A model generated the notes under the pieces. That model worked only from the letters and a program-made list of their open reading frames with translations, had not been told where the DNA came from and did no database searches. 64,000 nt of DNA, taken from positions 12,198 through 76,197 of the forward strand of contig JASHTS010000074.1 of the NCBI GenBank assembly GCA_030040425.1, written 5' to 3'. This document shows positions 1-14,672 of the stretch, piece by piece. Numbering within the stretch: the stretch's first letter is position 1; every line of letters starts with the position of its first letter. The translations under genes were made by a program, and so were the position numbers. The stretch comes from Acidobacteriaceae bacterium (GTDB taxonomy: Bacteria; Acidobacteriota; Terriglobia; Terriglobales; Acidobacteriaceae).

Positions 1-60
1 TCACCCGGCGGCCGGGGCCGCGTGCCGATCGAATGCATCTTGGGGCTATGTTCGAAGTGT

Positions 61-127
61 CCGGGCCTGAAGGCCGGATAGATTCTTTGCTCGCGAATTC
101 AGTGGCCTCAAGGCCACTGCGCCCTCC
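61..127 (+). repeat. Palindromic repeat family C (GGCCTGAAGGCC...GGCCTCAAGGCC...GCCCTCC)
   Basis: Two short GGCC-flanked hairpins; related copies at 19491-19557 and 55424-55483. Confidence 0.6.
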
Positions 128-140
128 TAGCCGTTAAGCC

Positions 141-1253
141 TTACAGCGTGCGCTTGAAGAGCGGCGTGGCGATGAGCAGCGTGCCGATCCCGAAGATGGA
201 GAGAAACAGCAGGTCCTGGTAGATGGAGACCCAGCCTCCGTCTTTGAGAAGGATCTGCTGCAATCCATGAATGGCATACGTAAATGGATCGACGATGGCG
301 ATCGACCGCAGCCACTTGGGAAAAGCGGAGATTGGATAAATGGCGCCGGAGGGAAAGAAGAGCAGCGTGTTGAGGACGCCGAACATAGCGCGGGGAACGA
401 GCGGATCGTCGACGCGCACCATCATCAGAAACATCATGCCGTTGAAAGCGATGGAGGTAACGAGGATGACGGCCAGGAGCTGAAGATCCTGCATGGGGTG
501 AAAGATCGCGCCCATCCCCGCCATGAGCGAGCCGATCACGGTGAGCGAGATTCCGGCCAGCACCGCTTTAGCGGCGCCGGCCACGTTGAGGCCCATCACC
601 AGCTCAAGGCCGGTGATGGGCGTGACCAGATAGCCCTCGTGCACGCCGCGCGCCTTGTCGTCGATGTAGAGCATGCCACCGCCGATCATGACGGAAACGT
701 ACATGGCCAGCGCGATGGAGCCGGAGAGAAGAAACTTCATGTAGGCCACGTAAGGATAAATCTCCACGACGTCGAGGGCGATGTTCTTGTCGATGGGATC
801 GGGAAGGAGAGGCGCATTCAGGGCATCGACGATCGATTGCAGCTCCGATTCGAGGCTCGAGGACATGAACTGGTCGGAGTTGTCCACAACGAGGCCGAGC
901 TGGGGCGCGTCCTGCGCGTAGACGCGGCGCGAGTATTGCGCGGGAATGATCACCGCGGCGTCGAGCTTGCCGGTTTGCACGGCTTCGCGCGCGGTGCGCT
1001 CGTCGGGGTAATCGAAGGTCTTGAAGGTCTTGATGGTGGCATTCACAGCGTCGAAGGCCTCGCGCACCTTCACCGCCTGCGGCCCGTGATCGTAATCGAC
1101 CAGGCCCACGCGCGCATTGGTGATCTTGCCGCCGAAGGCGTTGCCGAGGATGACGAGCTGCACCAGGGGCAGCATCATGGACATGATCATGAGGACGGGC
1201 GAGCGGAAGAACTTGCGCATCTCGCGCTCGACGATGGCCATCATTCTGTTCAT
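141..1253 (-). CDS. ABC-2 type transporter permease
   Basis: MNRMMAIVEREMRKFFR start; multi-TM C-terminus with FFPSGAIYPI...P.WL...DPFTYAI motif; overlaps ATPase stop. Confidence 0.9.
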   Translation of the reverse strand: MNRMMAIVEREMRKFFRSPVLMIMSMMLPLVQLVILGNAFGGKITNARVGLVDYDHGPQAVKVREAFDAVNATIKTFKTFDYPDERTAREAVQTGKLDAAVIIPAQYSRRVYAQDAPQLGLVVDNSDQFMSSSLESELQSIVDALNAPLLPDPIDKNIALDVVEIYPYVAYMKFLLSGSIALAMYVSVMIGGGMLYIDDKARGVHEGYLVTPITGLELVMGLNVAGAAKAVLAGISLTVIGSLMAGMGAIFHPMQDLQLLAVILVTSIAFNGMMFLMMVRVDDPLVPRAMFGVLNTLLFFPSGAIYPISAFPKWLRSIAIVDPFTYAIHGLQQILLKDGGWVSIYQDLLFLSIFGIGTLLIATPLFKRTL

Positions 1254-2287
1254 CGCTGATCTCCCGGCCGCTGCAGCATGGCCCACGAAGCCATCATCGG
1301 CTTCACCTGCTCGTCACGAAGCTGGCGGCCGGTGTAATGCACAAACACATCGTCGAGGGTGGTGTTCTGCACGCTCAACGAAGTGAGAGTTTCGCCCAGG
1401 CTGGCGGCCAGCTCCACAATCTGCATGGTGGTTTTGGATCCGGACCTGGTGATGACGCGATAGAAGCCGGAGCTCTCGGGCTGCACGCTGGTGACGCCTT
1501 CCAGGCCTTCGAGCCGGCCTTTCCACTCGTCCGTTTCGCGGTCGAAGTGGACTTCGACGACATTCGCGCCGGCCACGCTGTTCTTGAGTTCCGTGGGCGT
1601 GCCCAGCGCGACGAGCTTGCCGTGATCCACGATGGCGATGCGGTCGCACAGCTTGTCGGCCTCTTCCATGTAATGCGTGGTCAGCAGCATGGTGAGCTTG
1701 CGCGTGGCCTTGAGGTTGTTCAGCATCTCCCACACGGCGATGCGCGACACGGGATCGAGCCCCGTGGTCGGCTCATCGAGAAAGAAGATGCGCGGGTCGT
1801 GCACCAGCCCGCGCGCGATCTCGAGGCGCCGACGCATGCCGCCGGAGAGCGTCTTCGTGGGCGCCTCGCGCCATTTGATCAGGTCCACGGCTTCGAGCAC
1901 TTCAGTGATGTTCTTCTCCCGCTGCGCGCGCGGCACGCTATAGAGCTTGGCGTAGATGAGGAGGTTCTCTTCGACCGTCAAATCGGGATCGCTGGTGAGC
2001 GCCTGGGGGATGACGCCGATGCGCCTGCGCACGTCGTCGGGATCCACTTCGACATTGTGGCCGGCGACGATCGCCTTGCCGGCGGTGACGGGAATGAGCG
2101 TGGTCATCATGCGGATGAGCGTGCTCTTGCCTGCGCCGTTGGGGCCAAGCAGGCCGAAGATTTCTCCCTCGGCCACGCGGAAGCTCACGTCTTTCACAGC
2201 TTCAAAATCGCCGTAGCGCTTGACGATGTGCTCGACTTCCATGGCCGCGGGCCGCCCGGCCAGGCTGCCGTTGCCGGGCGCGCTCAT
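1250..2287 (-). CDS. ABC transporter ATP-binding protein (DrrA/CcmA-like)
   Basis: Walker A GPNGAGKS, LSGGM signature, FFLDEPT, TTHYMEEA. Confidence 0.95.
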   Translation of the reverse strand: MSAPGNGSLAGRPAAMEVEHIVKRYGDFEAVKDVSFRVAEGEIFGLLGPNGAGKSTLIRMMTTLIPVTAGKAIVAGHNVEVDPDDVRRRIGVIPQALTSDPDLTVEENLLIYAKLYSVPRAQREKNITEVLEAVDLIKWREAPTKTLSGGMRRRLEIARGLVHDPRIFFLDEPTTGLDPVSRIAVWEMLNNLKATRKLTMLLTTHYMEEADKLCDRIAIVDHGKLVALGTPTELKNSVAGANVVEVHFDRETDEWKGRLEGLEGVTSVQPESSGFYRVITRSGSKTTMQIVELAASLGETLTSLSVQNTTLDDVFVHYTGRQLRDEQVKPMMASWAMLQRPGDQR

Positions 2288-3348
2288 TGTTTCACCAGCC
2301 GGTTTTTAGGAATATAGACTTCGGCCGTCATGCCGGGAACATACTCCTCGCCGGGATTGGGAATGAGGAGCTTCAACTGCACCGTCCGGATGTCGCGCTT
2401 TTGCCGGCTCACGTCGCGCTGCGTGGCAAAGTCCGCTTCGGCGGCTTTGGCAATCACTTTTCCCTGCACGGGTGCACCGCTCGGCATGACCACGCGCAGG
2501 CTGTCGCCCAGCTTGACGGCGTCCGCCTGCGTCTCGGGCAGTGGCGCGTAGACCCAGGTCTGCTTGAGGTCCATGATGGTGACGATCGGCGTTCCCGCGG
2601 CCACCACTTCGCCCTGGCGCGCGGCCCACTCGTTGACCACGCCGCTCACGGGCGCGTCCACGCGGGCATAACCGGCTTCAACCTGCGCTTCCTGCGCCAG
2701 CGCGCGCGCGTTGGCTTCGGCGTCGCGCGTTTCATTCACTGTCCGCTTGGAAACCGCGGTCAGCAGTTCGTGCGCCTTTGCCTCTCGAAGCTGGGCCTGG
2801 GCCGCGCTCAGATTGCCTCGCGCGGTGTTGACTGCCGCTTCGGTGGCGTTCAGGCTGGTTTCGGCATCTTCTTTCGCCTGCGCGCTCATGATGCCCTGAT
2901 TCGCCAGGGCTACGGTGCGGGTCGTGTCAGCCTTCTGGTGATCGTAGTTAGCCTGCGCCTGTTGGAGCGTGGCCTGCGCTGCTTTCACCTGCGCTTCGGC
3001 TGCCTGCGTGGCGCTATCGGTTTCGCCGCGATTCTCATCCACGGTTTCTTCGGCCTCGTTGAGCTTCCATTGGTCGCCGGCCGCAGTGGCCTGCGCCGCC
3101 TTGAGGGCGGCATCGAGATCCTTACTTTCGATCACCGCAATCAAATCGCCCGCATTGACCTTCTGTCCTTCGACCACGGTAAGCTTTTCGATACGGCCGG
3201 GAATCTTCGAGCTCACCACGACTTCGTTCGCATCCACCGTACCGATCAGCTGCAGATCGCCGCCGTGCGGAACGGTCAGGAAATACCAGAGGAGCGACCC
3301 CGCCGTGAGCAGTCCCAGAATGAGAAACACCCGATTACGTGCATTCAC
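2284..3348 (-). CDS. HlyD-family efflux periplasmic adaptor
   Basis: N-terminal TM, lipoyl-like SSKIPGRI..VVEGQKV, Ala/Gln coiled coil, APVSGVV, PGMTAEV. Confidence 0.9.
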   Translation of the reverse strand: MNARNRVFLILGLLTAGSLLWYFLTVPHGGDLQLIGTVDANEVVVSSKIPGRIEKLTVVEGQKVNAGDLIAVIESKDLDAALKAAQATAAGDQWKLNEAEETVDENRGETDSATQAAEAQVKAAQATLQQAQANYDHQKADTTRTVALANQGIMSAQAKEDAETSLNATEAAVNTARGNLSAAQAQLREAKAHELLTAVSKRTVNETRDAEANARALAQEAQVEAGYARVDAPVSGVVNEWAARQGEVVAAGTPIVTIMDLKQTWVYAPLPETQADAVKLGDSLRVVMPSGAPVQGKVIAKAAEADFATQRDVSRQKRDIRTVQLKLLIPNPGEEYVPGMTAEVYIPKNRLVKQ

Positions 3349-3355
3349 TCGGCTT

Positions 3356-4096
3356 TCACCTCAATCCGTTTGATTTTTGCCGCTTGATTTCGGAGCTCTC
3401 CGGCATGGGCGTGGCCGCGAGCACGCGTGCAGCTACGTGCGCCCCATGGCGGCGGTCGCAGAAGATCGTCTGCCCGAGGTATTCAACCGCTGCTCTGCGC
3501 CGCGCCCGCAGCGCCCTGGGCGCGAATACGTCGCTTCCGCGGAGCATTCCCATGACCGGGCCGGAAAGAAAATAAAAAACATTGGCGCCCAGCGCGGCGT
3601 ACATCATCTGCCACTCGTCCACGCGGATCAGCTCTCCGGTACGCATGCCCTCGGCCAGGAGTTCCTTCACGCGCCCCAGCATGGGCCGGAAGACCCTCTC
3701 CACCAGCGGCGTGAGCGCATTTTCTTCGCCGCGCTGCAGACGCATGAGCTCCTGCTGCATCAGGCTCTGAAAGGCGCGCTGCGAGTGGATGCGGTCAAAA
3801 TGATTGAGCGCAAAATGCACCAGCCGCTCGCCCGCCGAGCGCTTGCTGCCCAGAACGGCGAGGCCGCTGGAGACAACGCGCTCCGCCACCTTTTCGAGGG
3901 CCGCCGCATACAACGCGTCTTTGCCTTGAAAGTAGTAGTAGAGCAGCGCCTTGTTGACCTGGGCGGCTTCGGCAATCTGCTCCGTGCGCGCGCCGGCCAA
4001 CCCGTTTTCGCTGAATTCGCCGATGGCGGCGTCGAGAATCCGGGTCCGGGTCACGTCCGCCCGCTCGGTTTGCGTCTTGTTCGAAAGCGCCTGCAT
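3356..4096 (-). CDS. TetR/AcrR family regulator
   Basis: RILDAAIGEFSENGLAGARTEQIAEAAQVNKALLYYYF HTH; heads the efflux operon; ATG at 4096. Confidence 0.9.
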   Translation of the reverse strand: MQALSNKTQTERADVTRTRILDAAIGEFSENGLAGARTEQIAEAAQVNKALLYYYFQGKDALYAAALEKVAERVVSSGLAVLGSKRSAGERLVHFALNHFDRIHSQRAFQSLMQQELMRLQRGEENALTPLVERVFRPMLGRVKELLAEGMRTGELIRVDEWQMMYAALGANVFYFLSGPVMGMLRGSDVFAPRALRARRRAAVEYLGQTIFCDRRHGAHVAARVLAATPMPESSEIKRQKSNGLR

Positions 4097-4101
4097 GAGG
4101 G

Positions 4102-4129
4102 TTTTAACTAACTGGTTAGTAAAATAGCA
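4102..4129 (-). promoter_or_regulatory. Putative TetR operator overlapping an extended -10 promoter
   Basis: Inverted repeat ACTAAC-TG-GTTAGT (4107-4120) with T/A flanks; minus strand reads TGcTATTTT just upstream. Confidence 0.6.
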
Positions 4130-4175
4130 CAGAAGAGAACTCGCACGCAAGGCGGTGCAGGCGCGAAACGCCCGC

Positions 4176-4916
4176 TTACCAGGGCAGGGGCTTGCCCAGG
4201 TGGAAGAAACCGCCTGTCGGCCCGCTGTCGGGAAGCGTCGCGAGCGCGGCGCTGGTCTTTGCTCCTTCTTCGAGGCCCATGGGCGCCTGCGGCCCGCCCA
4301 TATCGGTCTTCACCCATCCCGGATGGGCGGAGTTGACTTTGATTCCGGTGTCGCGCAATTCGTAGGCAAGGTGCACGGTGAAGGCATTGAGCGCCGTCTT
4401 CGAAGCGTCGTACGCAAAGGACTTGGCGTCGTAGATGGGCGAGCCGGGCGTGGCCTGCAGGGTGAGCGAGCCAAGAATGCTGGAGAGATTCACAATGCGC
4501 GCCGCCGGGCTCTTGCGCAGCAGCGGCAGAAGCGTCCTGGTCAGCGCGACCTGGGCAAAGAAGTTTGTCTCGAAGACCTTGTGCAGCAGCTCGGGGGGAA
4601 CGTTGGCAGTGGAATGCTCGGGGCCGTTGCCGGGGAACGGTCCGGCGGCGATGCCGGCATTGTTCACGAGAATATCCAGGTGACCATAATGCGAGCTGAA
4701 ATAGTCGAACGCGGCCTGGTGGCTTTGTGGCTGGGTTATATCGAACTGGAGCACGTCCGCATCGACGCCGGCGGCGCGCAGTTTTTCGAGCGCACTTTCG
4801 CCCTGTTCCCGATCTCTGGAACCGATAACAACTTTGGCCACATCCTTCAGTTCGAGCGCGGTCTGGAAGCCGATGCCGCGATTGCCGCCGGTGATGAATG
4901 CAATTTTCTTCGCCAT
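4176..4916 (-). CDS. SDR oxidoreductase (carbonyl reductase-like)
   Basis: TGGNRGIG, NNAG, YDASK, HPGWVKTDMGG. Confidence 0.92.
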   Translation of the reverse strand: MAKKIAFITGGNRGIGFQTALELKDVAKVVIGSRDREQGESALEKLRAAGVDADVLQFDITQPQSHQAAFDYFSSHYGHLDILVNNAGIAAGPFPGNGPEHSTANVPPELLHKVFETNFFAQVALTRTLLPLLRKSPAARIVNLSSILGSLTLQATPGSPIYDAKSFAYDASKTALNAFTVHLAYELRDTGIKVNSAHPGWVKTDMGGPQAPMGLEEGAKTSAALATLPDSGPTGGFFHLGKPLPW

Positions 4917-5002
4917 AAGGGAAATTTTCTCCTGCGATGGATTGGATTCGCGCACATTGCCAAACGGTGCAGGGAAATATGATCAGCCGAAAAAAGAACA
5001 AC

Positions 5003-5059
5003 CGCAAATCCTTCGACTCCGATCGTCCGCGGGCACGGCCGATCTCGCTCAGGATGACA
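5003..5059 (+). repeat. Palindromic repeat family A (GCAxxTCCTTCGACTCC...CGCTCAGGATGACA)
   Basis: Conserved ends with variable central hairpin; copies at 26812, 34955, 63659. Confidence 0.85.
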
Positions 5060-5088
5060 ACCTGCCGCGGCGTCTTCACGGCGACTGT

Positions 5089-5989: not shown

Positions 5990-8900
5990 TCACTGCACCG
6001 TAAGAGCGATGTTGGTCGTCGCGGTGACGGCGCCGGAAGTTCCGGTGACGGTGATGGAGTAAGTGCCGGGGGTGGTGGCGTTGCTTTCCGCGCCGGTCGA
6101 GGTTCCGGATGGCGCAAGGCTGCCGCCACAGGCGATCATTCCGCCGGCGAGCACAAAGAACAGCGCCACCATCCCAAAGAAGGCGCGCCACTGACGCCGG
6201 CGCGGAAGGCCGACGAGGAAGAGGCAGGCCAGTACGGCCCCGCCCGACGCAAGAAATCCGGGCCCGCCGCGCGGCGCGCTGGCCACGCTCGAGGAGTCGG
6301 CGGAGGTGGAGATGGCGAGGACCGCGGTTGCCGCACTCGAAGCGATGGGGACGGGCGTGGTGGCGCCGAAGCTCAGCACGGGAAGATTTCGGGCGCCGGC
6401 GGGTGCGGCGACGATTTGAGCCGTCAAGTTCACCGATCCCGTAAAACCGCCGGTGGGCGTGACGGTGATTGTCGAGGTATTGCCGGTGATGGCACCGGGC
6501 GCGAGGGTCACCGAGGTGGCCGCGAGCGCAAAGGCCGCGGGCGTGACGGTGGTGATCGATTCATCCAGCGCGCCGGATGCGCTGGATGCAAATCCGGCAG
6601 CTCCCTGATAAGCGGCCGAGACGCTGAGATTGCCGGCCTGAGAAGGAGCCGTGGCGGCGAGCGTTGCCACGCCCGCTGCATCGAGCGCCGCGGTTTCGGT
6701 TTGGCTGCCGATGGTAAAGGTGACTTGCCCTCTGGGCGCACTCGCTCCGCCGGCCGGCGTGACGGTGGCGGTGAGCGTGAAGGACGATCCGGCTGCGAGC
6801 GCGCCTCCGCCTGGGGAGATGCTGAGCGCCGTCGCCGTGGGCATGATGCCGGCAGCCGCAATGTTCAAGGGGATTGTCGTGGTCACGGTGCGCCCGCTCG
6901 CGGTACCCGAGAGCGTCAGAGGATAACTTCCCGGCGCTGCGGAGTAATTCGCGGCCAGGGTGAGCACGCTGCTGCCCGTGGTTGCATTGGGCGCAAATGA
7001 CGCCGTCAAGCCGCCGGGCAGCGCAGACGCTATGGCGAGATTGACGATGCCGCTGAATCCAGACTGCGGAATGACGGCTACCTGGTCCGTCGTTCCCGCG
7101 CCCTGCGTCACAGTGACTGCGCCGGGCGATGCGGAGAGCGTGAATCCGGGAGGCGGATTCACCGTAAGGAAGATGGTAGCCACCGTTGATTGCGAACCCG
7201 ACGTCCCCGAGATCCAGAGCGTATAAAATCCTGCCACGGCGGTGTTCGTGGCCGAGAGCGTCAACTGGCTGCTTCCTTTAGTCGAGCTGGGAGCAAAAGA
7301 CGCCTGCACGCCGCCGGGCAATGTCGACGTGACGGCCAGATTCACGCTCCCCTTGAACCCATTCTGCGGAGTGATGGCAATGCCGTCGGAGGCCGTTCCG
7401 CCCTGCGCGATAGAAAGCGAGGATTGTCCGACACCGATGGTGAACGAGGGAGCCGGCGCCGCTGTGACCGCCACGTTGAACTGATTAAGGGTTTCAGAAT
7501 ACGAGCCGCGAGCCTCAATGTCGGCGGCCGCTGACCCTATGGGCGCGGAACTGCCGGCGGTAAGCGTAAGCGTGCTGGTTTGGCCGATTTGAACGATCGC
7601 CGGATTGAAGACGGCCGTGACTCCGGGCGGCAGCGCGGGCGCGGAGAGCTGGATCACGTCGCTAAAATGATCGACGGGGACCAGGGACACCGTGGTGGTG
7701 ACCGTGCTTCCCTGGGAGATGGTCATCGGATACGGAGCAATGTCGAGATAAAAGAGCGGAGGGCTCACGACCAGCGCGAGCGTGGCCGTGGCGGTCAGAT
7801 TGCCGGCTGTGCCCGTGACTGTGACTTCCGCATCGCTGTTTTCGGGCGCCGAACTGCTCGCCGTGAGGGTAAGCGTGCCTGCTCCCGTGGTCGGGTTATT
7901 CACCCAGGAAGCCGTCACGCCGCTGGGCAATCCCGAGGTGACGGCCAGGTTCACACTGCCGTTGAAGCCCGCAAGTCCGGTCATCTGGATGGAAACGGTT
8001 CCGGAGGTGCCGGGATAGATCTTCAGATTCGCGGGCGAGGGCTCAAGCGTGAATCCGGGCGCATTCACGGTGAGTGCAAGGCTGGCCGACACGGTCTGCG
8101 CGCCCGAGGTTCCGGTCACGGCGAGGAGATAGGAGCCGCGCGTGGCCGAACTCCCGACGGAGAGGGTAAGCACGCTCTTGCTGGAAACCGGATTGGCGCT
8201 CCAGGTGGCGGTCACCCCGCTGGGCAGCCCGGAGACGGCCAGTGTGACGTTGCCCGAAAATCCAGCGTTCTCTGTGACGGTGATGGCGGCCTGGCCGGAA
8301 CTGCCGGGATCGATTGTTAACGCGCTCATGGAGGAGGCGAGCGCGAAGCTCGGCGGCGCCTGCGGTGCGAGGGCGTCAATCAGGCTTTGGCCGTCCGGGC
8401 TTCCCCACCCGGTGACCAGATCGTAGCCGGGAACGGCGTTGTAGTAGGGCCAGCCGCAGCAGTTGTTGCGCGCGTCGTTGTTGCCGATGACAATATCGTG
8501 AAGATCTTCGCTATAGCTTGAATCCGACCCGAGACCGATTGCGTAGATGGCCGGGTTGAGGAAGCCGACGGCGGGATCGCCATTTCGCACGGCCTGCTGG
8601 TTGACCAGCGCCATGAAGCCAGCCCAGCGCGGCGCGGCGAAGCTGGTGCCTCCGTAGTCGCCCGCGCAAACGCCCATATCGCAGGCATAATTATCCGTGT
8701 TTGCCTCGGCGGCCACATCGGGAACGTTGCGCAGCGAGTTCGAGCCGCCGTTGCTGGAATTGGCCACACCCGCCTGCCAGGAGGGAAGCGGGATTCCGTC
8801 CGGACTCACGCCTCCGCCGCTCCAGGTCCACGCCGTCTCCGCCTGCCACGCCTGCCCCGCTCCTCCGGTGGTCAAGTCCGTTCCGCCCACCGCGGTTACA

Positions 8901-10039
8901 TAGGCGTCCTCGGCGGGATAAAAGCTGTCGAAGTACGGATCGAACTCGCCCCAATCGCCTGACGCAGCAAAGACGCTCTGGCCCTGCGCGGCAAGCTCTT
9001 CAAAGAACTCATCGTCGGTCGCGGGATCTTCGGGGCTCCATGACCACGAGATGCTGATCTGCTGGGCAATGTCTTCACAGGCCGCGGCGTTCAACAGGTC
9101 CACGTCGTTCGAGCCGATATAAACGCGCACCTGGCTCAGCCCCGGCGCCATGCCGATGGCCTGGGCGATATCGATCACCTCTTCGCTGTCGTCGCCGGAG
9201 ACCGATGCGCCGGTTTGCCCGTCGAGAAGCACGTTGTTGATGGGAACGCTGGCCGACTGGCCTGCGCTCGAAAAAGTCTGACTCACGTCGCTCAGGTTGT
9301 AGCCGTCAAACTCCACCAACCCGACTGTTTGCCCCGTGCCGGTAAGAGCGCTTCCTCCGTAATAAGCAGCGCGCATGTCGCTGGCGAGGTACGAGCCGTC
9401 CGGCCCCGATCCCGCACCGGCGCTCGCCGCGTCCGCTGCTGCCTGCGCGGCGTTGGCGCGCGTAACCATCGGCTGCGGAAGGGAGAAATTGTCCAGTCCG
9501 GCAATGTGCGCGAGGGGCACGGCCAGGTCGAGGCTTGGCTCACGGTCGGGCGAATAGAAAAGACGGTTCTCGGTGGGATGGTGATAGAGGCCCATCCTCA
9601 AGTTGAAGGCCTTTTCCACCTGGGCCACGGTGCCGCTGATGGGCACCACCAGCCGGTTGGCCGGTGATGCCGTCACCGCAAAGCCGTTCGCGCGCGCGAA
9701 ACTCACAACGGCGTCGTAATCCGCTGCCGAGGGTCCGAACTGCTGCGTAAACTGCGCCTGGTTAAGGAAGTGCCGGTAGTCGGGGCTGGAAGGATCGTAG
9801 AGGCGGCTGAGCAAACCGGTGAGCCCGGCCTGGTTCCGCAAGGGCAGCACAAGGGAAAGATACAGGCGCGTCTGGGGCGCCATCAGGCCGGCCGGTGCGG
9901 CTTGGCCGTTGAGGACGGCCGGGCGGACGTGGCCGCGCAGCACTTGCAGCGATGGTTGCGCAAGAGCGAGAGAGCCAAGGAATAAATAGGCCGCGGCGAA
10001 CGGGCGGCACCACGCGCAGTTTTTCACGTCTAAGCCCAA
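5990..10039 (-). CDS. Secreted S53 (sedolisin/kumamolisin-like) serine protease with prodomain, Ig-like repeats and C-terminal membrane segment
   Basis: Pro-kumamolisin motif LYDPSSPDYRHFL...FGPS; EEVID, ASGD, VPDVA, GGTSFAAP; GYDLVTGWGSP; repeated Thr/Ser-rich beta domains. Confidence 0.92.
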   Translation of the reverse strand: MGLDVKNCAWCRPFAAAYLFLGSLALAQPSLQVLRGHVRPAVLNGQAAPAGLMAPQTRLYLSLVLPLRNQAGLTGLLSRLYDPSSPDYRHFLNQAQFTQQFGPSAADYDAVVSFARANGFAVTASPANRLVVPISGTVAQVEKAFNLRMGLYHHPTENRLFYSPDREPSLDLAVPLAHIAGLDNFSLPQPMVTRANAAQAAADAASAGAGSGPDGSYLASDMRAAYYGGSALTGTGQTVGLVEFDGYNLSDVSQTFSSAGQSASVPINNVLLDGQTGASVSGDDSEEVIDIAQAIGMAPGLSQVRVYIGSNDVDLLNAAACEDIAQQISISWSWSPEDPATDDEFFEELAAQGQSVFAASGDWGEFDPYFDSFYPAEDAYVTAVGGTDLTTGGAGQAWQAETAWTWSGGGVSPDGIPLPSWQAGVANSSNGGSNSLRNVPDVAAEANTDNYACDMGVCAGDYGGTSFAAPRWAGFMALVNQQAVRNGDPAVGFLNPAIYAIGLGSDSSYSEDLHDIVIGNNDARNNCCGWPYYNAVPGYDLVTGWGSPDGQSLIDALAPQAPPSFALASSMSALTIDPGSSGQAAITVTENAGFSGNVTLAVSGLPSGVTATWSANPVSSKSVLTLSVGSSATRGSYLLAVTGTSGAQTVSASLALTVNAPGFTLEPSPANLKIYPGTSGTVSIQMTGLAGFNGSVNLAVTSGLPSGVTASWVNNPTTGAGTLTLTASSSAPENSDAEVTVTGTAGNLTATATLALVVSPPLFYLDIAPYPMTISQGSTVTTTVSLVPVDHFSDVIQLSAPALPPGVTAVFNPAIVQIGQTSTLTLTAGSSAPIGSAAADIEARGSYSETLNQFNVAVTAAPAPSFTIGVGQSSLSIAQGGTASDGIAITPQNGFKGSVNLAVTSTLPGGVQASFAPSSTKGSSQLTLSATNTAVAGFYTLWISGTSGSQSTVATIFLTVNPPPGFTLSASPGAVTVTQGAGTTDQVAVIPQSGFSGIVNLAIASALPGGLTASFAPNATTGSSVLTLAANYSAAPGSYPLTLSGTASGRTVTTTIPLNIAAAGIMPTATALSISPGGGALAAGSSFTLTATVTPAGGASAPRGQVTFTIGSQTETAALDAAGVATLAATAPSQAGNLSVSAAYQGAAGFASSASGALDESITTVTPAAFALAATSVTLAPGAITGNTSTITVTPTGGFTGSVNLTAQIVAAPAGARNLPVLSFGATTPVPIASSAATAVLAISTSADSSSVASAPRGGPGFLASGGAVLACLFLVGLPRRRQWRAFFGMVALFFVLAGGMIACGGSLAPSGTSTGAESNATTPGTYSITVTGTSGAVTATTNIALTVQ

Positions 10040-10230: not shown

Positions 10231-10336
10231 CCTCGACTAAGCGGAATAAGGTGAGCGCAATTTCCCCTGAATGAATAACCGGTTTTCGGCGTGGCGGGTT
10301 TCGCACGCCTGCGGGCTTTCCGCAGAGGTTGTTGCC

Positions 10337-11518
10337 ATGAAGTCAGATGCTGAATGTGCCCGAGCAGACTGTTTGCAGAAGCTGGACGAGGACCAGCTCG
10401 CCTGGCTGGCGTTGGCATTGGCTCCCGGCCTGGGGCCGAAGCGGATTCTCGACGCAGTGAAGGAAATTGGAGCGCCAAGCCGGATCTTCGAGCTCAGATT
10501 GACGGAGCTCGAGGGTTTGCGGTTTCCAGCTGAGGCAGCGCAGTTCATCTTCGAAGGCAAAGCAAGGGCCGCGGCCGAGGCGGAATGGGCCCAGGTAGCG
10601 GCGCAGAATGCTTCCATAGTGACGTATGGATGCGAAGCGTATCCGGAGCAGTTGAGGGAGATCTACGATCCGCCACCAGTGCTTTGGGTGCGCGGCGAGG
10701 TTCGCCTGCTGAGCCGACCCGCAATTGCCGTGGTGGGAACGCGGCACCCGACGCCTTACGGCACCGGTGTGGCGGAGATGCTGGCCCGCGACCTGGCTGC
10801 GCGGCGCCTGTTGATCGTCAGCGGGATGGCGCGCGGGATCGATTCCTGTGCCCACAAGGGAGCCCTGGCTGCCCGGATGCCCACGGTGGCGGTATGGGGA
10901 ACCGGCATCGATGTGGTCTATCCCAAGGAAAACAAAAAACTCGCAGAGGAGATTCTTGCATTGGGCGGTGCCATCGTCAGCGAGCTTCCCATGGGAACCT
11001 TCCCGGCGCCGCAGAACTTTCCCCGCCGAAACCGGATCCTGAGCGGGCTTTGCCTGGCCGTGCTGGTGGTGGAAGCCGGCGAGAACTCGGGCACCCGCGT
11101 GACCGCCCGCTGCGCCGCCGAGCAGAACCGCGACCTGTTCGCCGTACCGGGCAACGTGACCAGCAAGGGATCGTGGACGCCTAACACATTGATAAAACAG
11201 GGCGCAAAGCTGGTGGCGACCTGGGAAGATGTGTGGGAGGAACTCACATCGGAGGTGCGCCTGCAACTGCAAGCCGAGGCCCCGGATGAATCGAAGCGGG
11301 AGACCCAGGCATCGTTATTGCCTGAACCGGTGCTGCGGGCCGAGGAAGCGATGGTGCTGGAGGTTCTGCGCGCTGACCAAAGTTTGCAGATCGACGAGAT
11401 TCTCGACCTCCTGGAGACGCAACTCACTTCTTCTGAAGTGTTTACGGCGCTCTTTGAGCTGGAGCTGACGGGACGGATTCGGTGCCTGCCGGGCAAGAAT
11501 TATGTGAAGACGCTGTAA
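10337..11518 (+). CDS. dprA: DNA-processing protein DprA
   Basis: YP..LREIYDPPPVL, VVGTR, IVSGMARGIDSCAH, NFPRRNRI, C-terminal winged helix; upstream of topA. Confidence 0.95.
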   Translation: MKSDAECARADCLQKLDEDQLAWLALALAPGLGPKRILDAVKEIGAPSRIFELRLTELEGLRFPAEAAQFIFEGKARAAAEAEWAQVAAQNASIVTYGCEAYPEQLREIYDPPPVLWVRGEVRLLSRPAIAVVGTRHPTPYGTGVAEMLARDLAARRLLIVSGMARGIDSCAHKGALAARMPTVAVWGTGIDVVYPKENKKLAEEILALGGAIVSELPMGTFPAPQNFPRRNRILSGLCLAVLVVEAGENSGTRVTARCAAEQNRDLFAVPGNVTSKGSWTPNTLIKQGAKLVATWEDVWEELTSEVRLQLQAEAPDESKRETQASLLPEPVLRAEEAMVLEVLRADQSLQIDEILDLLETQLTSSEVFTALFELELTGRIRCLPGKNYVKTL

Positions 11519-11984: not shown

Positions 11985-14672
11985 ATGGCAACGAGTAAAT
12001 CATTGGTGATCGTCGAATCCCCCGCGAAAGCAAAGACGATCGAGAAATACCTCGGCAAAGGGTTCGAAGTACGCGCGTCGGTTGGGCACATCATGGATCT
12101 GCCCAAGAACGAAATCGGCGTGGAGTTGAAGAAGCGGACGTTTGCGCCGGAGCTGGTGGTTTCTCCGGGCAAAGAGAAGGTGGTTGACCAGCTCAAGAAG
12201 CTGGGCGCCAAAGCCGACGAAATCTATCTTGCTCCCGATCCCGATCGCGAGGGCGAAGCCATTGCGTATCATCTGGCTCTGCAGCTGGGGACGAACGCCA
12301 AAGAGAGAAAGAAAATCCGCCGCGTGACCTTCAACGAGATCACGAAGAAGGCTGTGCAGGAGGCGTTCAATCATCCGCGCGACATCGACCAGAATCTTGT
12401 GGACGCGCAACAGACGCGGCGGGTGCTCGACCGCCTGGTGGGGTATCAGATTTCACCGCTTCTCTGGGACAAGGTGCGGCGCGGGCTTTCCGCAGGCCGC
12501 GTGCAGACGGTAGCGGTTCGTTTGATTGTCGAGCGCGAGCGGGAGATCACGGCCTTTCGCCCGGTTGAATACTGGACGATTGACGCGATTCTCCATCCCG
12601 AACACCAGGCCGATGCAAAGTTCAAGGCGCGGTTTATCGGCATCGACGGCGAGTCGGCGCGCGTGGCCAACGGCAAAGACAAAGACGGGAAAGAGCAATT
12701 CCTTTCGAGTGCGCTGCCGGACAAGAAGACCGCGGATTCGATTCTGGCCGATCTGAAGGAGGCAAGCTGGTGGATCGCATCAGTGCAGGCGCGCGAGCAG
12801 CAGCGACGGCCGCTGGCGCCGTTCATCACCAGCCAGCTGCAGCGCGATGCGGCGAACAAGCTGGGATTCAACGTGCGCCGCACCATGGGCGTGGCGCAGC
12901 GGCTATATGAAGGCGTGGAGATCGGCTCGGAAGGCACGACCGGCCTGATCACGTATATGCGCACGGATTCTCCGCGCATCGCGCCGGAAGCGATCACGGG
13001 CGCGCGCGAGTGGATCGCGAAAGAGCTGGGGCCGCAGTATCTGCCGGCTTCGCCCAACGAGTACCGCGGCAAGAAAGAGGCGCAGGACGCGCACGAGGCC
13101 ATCCGTCCAACGGATGCCGCACGGACGCCGGAGTCGCTTGCGCGCTACTTGAGCGACGAGCAGCTCAAACTGTACACGCTGATCTGGAAACGCTTCGTTG
13201 CTTCGCAGATGGTGCCCGCGGTCTACGACGTGACCACGGCCAATATTGCCGCGAAGGCGAAGCGGTCCGGCAGGACGTACGACTTCCGCGTGAGCGGCTC
13301 GGTGCTGCGCTTTGACGGATTCCTGAAGGTTTACGAAGTCTCAGAAGAAAAGAGGAACGAAGACGATGAGACGGCCAACCGGCTGCCCAGCCTGGATGGC
13401 GTGACCGCGCTGGGACTGAATGAGCTCTTGCCGGAGGAGCACGCCACGCAGCCGCCTCCGCGGTACAACGAGGCTTCGCTGGTGAAGGAACTGGAAGAGC
13501 GGGGAATCGGGCGACCCTCGACGTACGCTTCGATCATCAATACCATCCAGGACCGCGAATACGTGGTGAAGCATGGAGGCTCGCGCGGGCGGTTTTATCC
13601 GACGGAGATCGGCGTCGTGGTGTGCGATCTCCTGGTGGAGAATTTTCCTTACATTTTCGACACCGCGTACACGGCCAAGCTGGAGACGGAGCTCGACGAC
13701 ATTGAAGAAGGCACGGAGAAGTGGACCGACCTGCTCAACGGTTTTTACGGATACTTTGAGAAAGAGCTGAAAACGGCGGGCAAGAAGATGCGCAACATCA
13801 AGCGCATGGAGGAAGTGACGAACGAGAAGTGCGAGCTGTGCGGATCTCCCCTGGTTTTGAAGTGGGGCAAGTTCGGCACCTTCTACGCCTGCTCGGCCTA
13901 CAACAAAAAGGACCCGACGAGCTGCACGTTCACCAAAGAGAACATCGCCTCCAAGCCGGACCTGAATACGCCCGAGGCGCAGGAAGCGGGCGACACGGAG
14001 GAGTACTGCGAAAACTGCGGCAAAGTGATGGTGATGCGCCGCGGGCTCTTCGGGCCGTTCATGGCCTGCCCAGACTACAACGCCGATCCGCCGTGCCGGA
14101 CCTTCCGCAAGCTGAGCCAGAAGCAGCAGCAGAAGCCGCCCGAGCCCACGGGCGAAGATTGTCCGGTGTGCGGAAAGCCGCTGGTGTTGCGGCAGGGCGC
14201 CTACGGGGAGTTCGTCTCCTGTTCCGGTTACCCGAAATGCAAATACGTGAAGCAGAACTTGATTGAAGGCATGAAGTGCCCCAAGTGCGGCGAAGGTGAC
14301 ATTGCCGAACGCAAAGCACGGCGCGGGAACGTGTTCTGGGGATGCACGAATTACCCGAAGTGCGACTTCACTTCGAATCTGAAGCCAGTGGCGAAGAAAT
14401 GCCCGCAGTGCGGCAGCCCGTACCTGGTGGAAAAGACGCTCAAGAGCGGCGTGTTTCTCGAATGCCCGAACAAGAAAAAGGGCGCGGAGGAAGAGGCAGC
14501 GCCGAAGAAGCGCGGGAAAAAGACCGCGGCGGTGGCGGACGCGGAAGAGAAGAAAGTGGTGTGCACCTATTCGAAGCGCATCGGCGATGCACCGCCCCCG
14601 CCTACGGCTGAAACGCACGGGCCGCTTCCGGAAAAGAGCAGGGAAGAGAAGCACGAATTACAGCCGGCGTAA
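11985..14672 (+). CDS. topA: DNA topoisomerase I
   Basis: LVIVESPAKAKTI, DPDREGE, SAGRVQ, ITYMRTD, GIGRPSTY; five C4 zinc ribbons. Confidence 0.98.
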   Translation: MATSKSLVIVESPAKAKTIEKYLGKGFEVRASVGHIMDLPKNEIGVELKKRTFAPELVVSPGKEKVVDQLKKLGAKADEIYLAPDPDREGEAIAYHLALQLGTNAKERKKIRRVTFNEITKKAVQEAFNHPRDIDQNLVDAQQTRRVLDRLVGYQISPLLWDKVRRGLSAGRVQTVAVRLIVEREREITAFRPVEYWTIDAILHPEHQADAKFKARFIGIDGESARVANGKDKDGKEQFLSSALPDKKTADSILADLKEASWWIASVQAREQQRRPLAPFITSQLQRDAANKLGFNVRRTMGVAQRLYEGVEIGSEGTTGLITYMRTDSPRIAPEAITGAREWIAKELGPQYLPASPNEYRGKKEAQDAHEAIRPTDAARTPESLARYLSDEQLKLYTLIWKRFVASQMVPAVYDVTTANIAAKAKRSGRTYDFRVSGSVLRFDGFLKVYEVSEEKRNEDDETANRLPSLDGVTALGLNELLPEEHATQPPPRYNEASLVKELEERGIGRPSTYASIINTIQDREYVVKHGGSRGRFYPTEIGVVVCDLLVENFPYIFDTAYTAKLETELDDIEEGTEKWTDLLNGFYGYFEKELKTAGKKMRNIKRMEEVTNEKCELCGSPLVLKWGKFGTFYACSAYNKKDPTSCTFTKENIASKPDLNTPEAQEAGDTEEYCENCGKVMVMRRGLFGPFMACPDYNADPPCRTFRKLSQKQQQKPPEPTGEDCPVCGKPLVLRQGAYGEFVSCSGYPKCKYVKQNLIEGMKCPKCGEGDIAERKARRGNVFWGCTNYPKCDFTSNLKPVAKKCPQCGSPYLVEKTLKSGVFLECPNKKKGAEEEAAPKKRGKKTAAVADAEEKKVVCTYSKRIGDAPPPPTAETHGPLPEKSREEKHELQPA

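Follow-up and report, generated by a model that had tools for sequence, protein, structure and literature searches.

A lipo-invert (NF058595) tail on an Acidobacteriaceae sedolisin: a split Ig-like domain, a membrane hairpin and a putative internal lipoprotein signal

We analyzed a 64,000-nucleotide window of an Acidobacteriaceae bacterium (GenBank assembly GCA_030040425.1, contig JASHTS010000074.1, positions 12,198 to 76,197), in which an open reading frame (ORF) at 5990-10039 on the reverse strand encodes a protease whose C-terminal tail carries a membrane hairpin and a lipobox inside its last immunoglobulin (Ig)-like domain. The gene is one open frame of 1349 amino acids (aa), as examined by translation, with its stop codon at 5990-5992. 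Note that the start codon is uncertain and could be either the TTG at 10039 or a GTG that follows it in frame a short way downstream, a few codons on. The features of the ORF are listed in Table 1. By sequence comparison, the cargo of the tail is a sedolisin (peptidase S53): pro-kumamolisin (1t1e) aligned to residues 31-562 with an E value of 9.5e-49, and both the Glu/Asp pair and the Ser motif GGTS(F)AAP were kept, in agreement, together with the PF09286 match, with the S53 assignment of an earlier note on this DNA made from the sequence alone. Self-comparison set the limits of the Ig-like repeats behind the catalytic domain at residues 564-658, 671-758, 767-868, 873-960 and 967-1060, and the PF16640 domain comes after them, so that the five full beta repeats and following Big_3-like domain described in that note were recovered in the same order.

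Table 1. Features of the protease ORF and its tail (window coordinates; TM, transmembrane; pLDDT, predicted local distance difference test)
Feature	Residues	Position	Strand	Basis or remark
Whole ORF		5990..10039	-	Exported kumamolisin-type protease with Ig-like repeats and lipo-invert tail
Sec-type signal peptide	~1-28	9956..10039	-	Basic, hydrophobic, ...ALA-QP; by inspection of translation
Pro-kumamolisin activation domain	51-184	9488..9889	-	Pfam PF09286, E 1.5e-23
Sedolisin (S53) catalytic domain	~216-562	8354..9394	-	Kumamolisin 1gt9/1t1e, E 3e-36 to 9.5e-49
Five complete ~95-aa Ig-like repeats	564-1060	6860..8350	-	Self-comparison
Big_3_5 Ig-like domain	1080-1159	6563..6802	-	Pfam PF16640, E 8.4e-12
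Split last Ig-like domain, first part	1168-1251	6287..6538	-	Self-comparison and AlphaFold2 model, pLDDT 94-98
Linker to membrane	1252-1265	6245..6286	-	Conserved in close subfamily
TM helix 1, GG...LAC...G.P	1266-1279	6203..6244	-	Putative stop-transfer, out to in; helix at model positions 100-109
Basic loop RRRQWR	1280-1285	6185..6202	-	Putative cytoplasmic loop; would act as n-region of internal signal
TM helix 2 (h-region, 18 aa) and lipobox G-M-I-A	1286-1303	6131..6184	-	Sequence and homologue alignment
Cys1304, candidate diacylglyceryl acceptor, first residue after putative LspA cut	1304	6128..6130	-	Conserved in homologues and paralogues
Gly/Ser/Thr-rich tether	1305-1321	6077..6127	-	Length differs among homologues
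Last two beta-strands of split domain (TTPGTYSITVTGTSG...ALTVQ)	1322-1349	5993..6076	-	Self-comparison and models, pLDDT ~98

The last Ig-like domain is interrupted by an insert of 70 aa, residues 1252-1321. On recomputation, all the coordinates given earlier for this break (about 70 aa made up of a TM helix, RRRQWR, a second helix and MIA-C) were correct, as was the place of the Cys at residue 1304 of 1349, with its codon at 6130-6128. The tail from the Cys onwards thus comprises residues 1304-1349, and the chain runs for 64 residues beyond the Arg cluster. When the insert was deleted, the joined sequence (residues 1168-1251 plus 1322-1349) aligned over its whole length, splice included, to the repeat at 564-658, with 36.6% identity and an E value of 1.3e-13, and it matched the other four repeats too. 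In addition, the last 28 residues alone matched the ends of three repeats with 58%, 60% and 54% identity. These matches together place the hairpin in the loop that leads into the final two strands of the domain.

The tail belongs, as judged by sequence, to a curated family. Specifically, the NCBIfam model NF058595 ('invert_tail'), named 'lipo-invert putative C-terminal anchoring domain-containing protein' in NCBIfam release 20.0 (June 2026), matched residues 1237-1349 over model positions 1-113 of 113 with an E value of 5.8e-22. The bit scores were 73.4 for the whole protein, 78.2 for residues 1150-1349 and 80 in a scan of the genome, against a cut-off of 37. The match runs to the very last residue (1349 of 1349), and the N-terminus of the protein reads, by inspection, as an export signal. 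The order expected of the family was also found: a TM helix, an Arg-rich loop, a second helix ending in the lipobox Cys, and terminal beta-strands. The likeness extends to the lineage and the paralogous spread, and nothing sets the window copy apart from the family, which is itself called 'putative' and with which the comparison was made by hidden Markov model (HMM) and model name alone. The tail is therefore already catalogued as a putative anchor and is not a new module; the earlier claim that no description of it existed did not hold, since the curated domain name states the same idea. A Deinococcus HPI preprint that speaks of a 'C-terminal lipoprotein signal' was also considered and set aside as not relevant, its phrase being loose wording for an ordinary N-terminal signal.

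We next describe the distribution of the tail, beginning with the genome of the window, an assembly of 312 contigs that is 75% complete. It holds 16 frames over the NF058595 cut-off and about 20 recognisable tails, all C-terminal and all with the Cys. The cargo is diverse: three sedolisins (two besides the window one), a GH113 protein, a GH53 protein with a ricin lectin, and chitobiase-C/Fn3-associated proteins, as well as He_PIG, legume-lectin-fold, NHL and FG-GAP propeller proteins and ASH-type Ig arrays. Such unrelated cargo across paralogous tails is what one would expect of a tag for sorting or anchoring. When residues 1165-1349 were searched against a library of 1.84 billion proteins, 1784 cluster representatives were found at E<=1e-3 and 173 at E<=1e-30, and nearly all of the matches end at the last residue of the protein. 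All 22 genomes from the taxonomic family of the window carry NF058595, as do 2 of the 4 genomes from three other families of the class. Over the whole phylum, only 28 of the 301 genomes score above the cut-off, and none of the 14 control genomes does. Note that the 301-genome set includes one unpublished genome (G024), on which alone no claim rests. The nearest public loci, as returned by a single-protein search, were only two, in an Acidobacteriaceae metagenome-assembled genome (MAG; 67% identity) and in a Terracidiphilus MAG. The best explanation of this distribution is that the tail is a lineage-specific tag put by Acidobacteriaceae on many exported enzymes and adhesin-like proteins.

Conservation of the tail was then quantified in the best 150 of the 1784 homologous tails. 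Cys1304 was invariant (150/150) and, as stated above, was also kept in all of the roughly 20 paralogues, bearing out the expectation that it would be conserved in homologous tails. In the 150 homologues and the paralogues alike, the Cys was preceded without exception by Ala, Gly or Ser, and a PROSITE-type lipobox fitted 149 of the 150. The uncharged stretch from the last basic residue to the Cys, corresponding to an h-region and preceded by RRR.W, was 16-21 aa long in 146 of the 150 homologues (range 14-25). Position +2 was Gly in 131/150 and never Asp, and the distance from the Cys to the C-terminus was 33-55 aa. The window segment itself has all the features of a type II signal sequence, namely an RRRQWR n-region, an 18-aa h-region and a G-M-I-A-C lipobox; thus the reading of the basic, hydrophobic and lipobox-Cys elements as a type II signal stood at the sequence level. 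Furthermore, the N-terminal lipoprotein candidates that a pattern scan picked out of the genome included large proteins with the same ...LAGC-GGGG pattern. Upstream of the second helix, the close subfamily conserves W1262, GG1266-7, LAC1270-2, G1277, P1279, RRR and W1284, of which the Arg residues of the loop are 86-95% conserved and W1284 91%. The linker conserves P1256, G1259 and P1261, while position 1262 is Trp in 89% of homologues and Phe in the window protein. The P..PG.PW linker and the Gly-rich start of TM helix 1 (TM1) could possibly form a second processing site. As a separate observation, a second Cys, Cys1272 in the LAC motif of TM1 (6221-6223, reverse strand), recurs in 80% of the 150 nearest homologues and is absent from most paralogues of the genome.

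The tail was compared with canonical lipoproteins, which are handled by Lgt, LspA, Lnt and Lol. It shares with them the basic n-region, the 18-aa h-region, the small residue before the Cys and a Gly-rich tether. However, the signal of the tail starts at about residue 1280, after a stop-transfer helix, whereas theirs starts at residue 1, and the lipidated product here would be a 46-aa peptide and not the whole protein. Given that the Cys is at position 1304 of 1349 and not within the first ~40 residues, the protein is not filed as a canonical lipoprotein, and the proposal is limited to a similar mode of working.

Structure models were made to place the terminal strands. An AlphaFold2 model of residues 1168-1349, built with the 150-homologue alignment, had a mean pLDDT of 83, with values of 94-98 for the beta part and the terminal strands and 55-78 for the helices. 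In this model, residues 1168-1251 formed seven strands at model positions 2-7, 10-12, 20-29, 34-44, 54-56, 63-65 and 70-77, and the terminal strands lay at positions 158-168 and 171-181. A 99-residue Ig-like domain of Micromonospora sialidase (1eut 404-502) aligned with 97 residues over model positions 1..182, with a Z score of 11.9 and a root-mean-square deviation of 2.1 A; because only 84 residues precede the hairpin, an alignment of 97 must include the terminal strands in the sandwich. The last 28 residues are therefore predicted to complete the beta-sandwich across the hairpin. The same was predicted in trans: a two-chain model of residues 1168-1251 with residues 1304-1349 scored 0.61, against 0.00 for the best of three controls, with at least 94% contact agreement between runs and a partner pLDDT of at least 70. 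In it, strand 158-168 was placed next to strand 34-44, and strand 171-181 next to strand 10-12. Of 80 solved complexes, 58 scored this high, as did 2 of 110 mismatched pairs; these counts hold only roughly because an alignment of our own was supplied. The two-chain model supports the predicted binding of the tail peptide to the half-domain. Pairing of the tail strands with the upstream half-domain, as the earlier note had supposed, was obtained by modelling both in cis and as a separate chain, and neither the conservation of the Cys nor the strand pairing spoke against that note's proposal.

Two natural variants occur among the paralogues. In a 1689-aa sedolisin (L046; G000:C286:4177-9243, reverse strand, where G000 labels the genome of the window), a complete additional Ig-like domain of about 105 residues separates the Cys from the terminal strands. 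In the model of its last 300 residues, the terminal strands were still placed in the split upstream domain, with pLDDT 93-97, and the same sialidase domain (2ber 404-502) aligned with 98 residues over 13..300 with a Z score of 12.2. In another paralogue (L054; G000:C214:8317-11814, forward strand), which scored 25.8 bits and is therefore under the cut-off, the hairpin apparently lies one loop later, leaving only about 20 residues, or one strand, behind the Cys. A common rule covers both variants: no matter what comes behind the Cys, the chain ends with the strand or strands missing from the upstream half-domain. In chaperone-usher pili and in engineered systems such as SpyTag/SpyCatcher, an incomplete Ig-like sandwich is completed by one or more strands from a separate polypeptide. 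The tail resembles the donor-strand complementation of the former and the split Ig-like domains of the latter in that separate strands would complete an Ig-like sandwich, and PapD/FimC/Caf1M-type domains were among the fold matches, with Z scores of 9-10. The likeness is at the fold level only; unlike those systems, the tail would be made as one chain and split later, would supply two strands instead of one, and implies no exchange or covalent bond.

Taking these data together, we favor a reading in which the NF058595 lipo-invert tag acts through Sec export, TM1, an internal type II signal, Lgt and LspA, and a lipopeptide retained by its strands, and we give this joint reading a probability of roughly 0.55. 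The protease and its Ig repeats would be exported by Sec, led by the N-terminal signal peptide, until TM1 halts transfer and leaves the RRR loop in the cytoplasm. Helix 2 would then restart export as an internal type II signal, bringing Cys1304 and the last 45 residues to the periplasmic face, where Lgt would lipidate Cys1304 and LspA would cut between Ala1303 and Cys1304. The resulting 46-aa lipopeptide would stay bound to the protein because its last 28 residues would supply the two strands that the final Ig-like sandwich lacks. In this scheme, the hairpin would be the topological cost of placing a lipoprotein signal downstream of an exported domain, and the split domain would be the device that holds the lipid on the protein after cleavage. 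The genome of the window offers context in line with this scheme: it has lspA (119.6 bits, over the cut-off) and a LolA-like gene, as well as two lgt-like ORFs, both of which fall below the lgt cut-off. We infer lipidation, LspA cleavage, the stability of the complex, hairpin removal and the final membrane location. With the family membership, anatomy, conservation and distribution observed and strand completion predicted in cis and in trans, this reading is partly supported: it passed the sequence and model tests that were run, yet it is neither new nor proven.

A further step concerns the outer membrane. The LspA-cut peptide, tri- or diacylated, might be clamped by the two strands as a non-covalent lipid anchor while a second cut frees the hairpin, whereupon Lol would carry an enzyme of more than 1300 aa, held by this small peptide handle, to the cell surface or outer membrane. 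Lol could act on the complex only once the hairpin was gone. This extension is tentative, and we hold it to be somewhat more doubtful than probable.

Several points weigh against the favored reading. After the LspA cut the hairpin would still be joined to the body of the protein, and the lipid would therefore be redundant unless a second cleavage takes place. Lgt and LspA would have to accept a signal that has no free N-terminus and that follows another TM helix, and we know of no characterised precedent for a lipoprotein signal at residue ~1280-1304. No paper using the name lipo-invert, invert_tail or NF058595, or describing the arrangement, was found in the literature. In the genome of the window, two lgt-like ORFs were detected, both under the NCBIfam cut-off of 118.9 bits: a nearly full-length one at G000:C223:21507-22235 (forward strand) with the best match of 85.1 bits, and another at G000:C246:3340-4098 (reverse strand) with 50.8 bits. 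No lnt over the cut-off was found there, a result that says nothing either way because of the 75% completeness of the genome. Across the 301 genomes, the number of lgt copies did not vary with the tail, being 1-3 in the family that bears it and 1-4 elsewhere. No candidate for a second processing enzyme was found either: in the 75%-complete genome no rhombosortase scored over the cut-off, the best TIGR03902 match being a general rhomboid at 29.6 versus 84 bits in a search that did not cover the exosortase and CPBP families, and no recurrent downstream ORF family was found beside 19 tail genes by BLASTP at E<=1e-5. As for the models, Ig halves may score well since Ig domains are abundantly solved, and the alignment used for the L046 model was taken from ordinary tails. 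As a side observation on lgt, several genera of the window's family have unusually weak lgt matches relative to the rest of the phylum.

Alternatively, the two helices might be a permanent inner-membrane anchor that holds the protein on the periplasmic side; the Cys may then be lipidated by Lgt as a third anchor, with the LspA cut absent or inconsequential because the hairpin remains joined to the body. The two helices and their positive-inside loop make up a well-formed hairpin, the rhombosortase search and the neighbours of the 19 tail genes revealed no enzyme to remove it, and the conservation of TM1 and the loop (W1262, GG, LAC, G.P and RRR.W) goes beyond that of a passive spacer, so that a lasting role is possible. 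However, such an anchor needs neither an invariant Cys with a strictly small residue before it nor a split domain, a single C-terminal TM helix would suffice, and cargo such as glycosidases and proteases, whose substrates are polymers, would gain little from confinement to the periplasm. We therefore regard permanent anchoring in the inner membrane as unlikely. TM1 and the Arg cluster can also be read as a sortase-type signal, in which a dedicated enzyme cuts before or in TM1 and the lipobox is otherwise used, or in which both cuts occur, the hairpin is excised, the lipopeptide is kept and Lol can carry the product to the outer membrane. In PEP-CTERM/exosortase, GlyGly-CTERM/rhombosortase, MYXO-CTERM, archaeal PGF-CTERM/archaeosortase and eukaryotic glycosylphosphatidylinositol (GPI) signals, nothing follows the basic cluster, and a dedicated transpeptidase-like enzyme is required. 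The tail is like these C-terminal signals in being a tag that one lineage puts on exported proteins otherwise unrelated to each other, with an Arg cluster behind a hydrophobic helix and a presumed C-terminal lipid; by eye, its GG...hydrophobic...P-RRR segment resembles the PEP-CTERM, GlyGly-CTERM and MYXO-CTERM signals in particular, and it is lineage-restricted and highly paralogous, as are sortase substrates. The conserved P..PG.PW linker before TM1 would offer a cleavage site, and the LolA-like gene and the lack of Asp at position +2 would suit the transport step. On the other hand, the tail differs from those signals by a second helix, a lipobox and two strands, its lipid link would be non-covalent, and no known signal of that type continues, as the tail does, for 64 residues behind the basic cluster. 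Moreover, no NCBIfam sorting-signal model other than NF058595 matched the tail at E<=1, and neither the rhombosortase search nor the neighbours of the 19 tail genes supplied a dedicated enzyme; we thus consider a sortase-type signal rather improbable, a little more so than the inner-membrane anchor.

An artefact, such as a frameshifted or fused gene end or a low-complexity pseudo-repeat rich in T, G and S, was considered because the region has 68% G+C and is rich in T, G, S and A codons. This explanation was ruled out, its chance being negligible, by the curated HMM match, the splice-spanning alignment and the 1784 homologous cluster representatives with the same end; the confident models argue against it as well.

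If the favored reading is true, this would be, to our knowledge, the first case of Lgt and LspA acting on an internal signal and the first of a lipid anchor held by beta-strand complementation. It would offer a new answer to the question of how diderm bacteria fasten large enzymes by their C-termini. The display of dozens of proteases, glycosidases and adhesin-like proteins by the Acidobacteriaceae that abound in soil would thereby find an explanation, and a compact, genetically encoded split-domain lipid tag could be derived from the system. The NCBI name anticipates anchoring; new to biology would be the handle formed by strand complementation and the route with two cuts. What the window adds to a module that is already a curated family is one further NF058595 member, its sedolisin cargo and the supporting models.

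Finally, we examined the genes around the protease gene. An MqnA-like gene lies downstream (5089 to ~5920), and dprA (10271-11518, forward strand) lies upstream in the divergent direction, followed by a topoisomerase I gene (11985-14672, forward strand). As dprA and the topoisomerase I gene are housekeeping genes, the tail gene stands alone, outside any secretion or sorting cluster. A 323-aa ORF at 4108-5079 (reverse strand), between the MqnA-like and TetR genes, had no Pfam match at E<=0.01. Beyond it, four genes run in the same direction over 141-4150 (reverse strand): a TetR-family regulator (3356-4150), an HlyD-type membrane-fusion protein (2284-3348), an ABC ATPase (1250-2287) and an ABC-2 permease (141-1286), a set that looks like an ordinary efflux operon.

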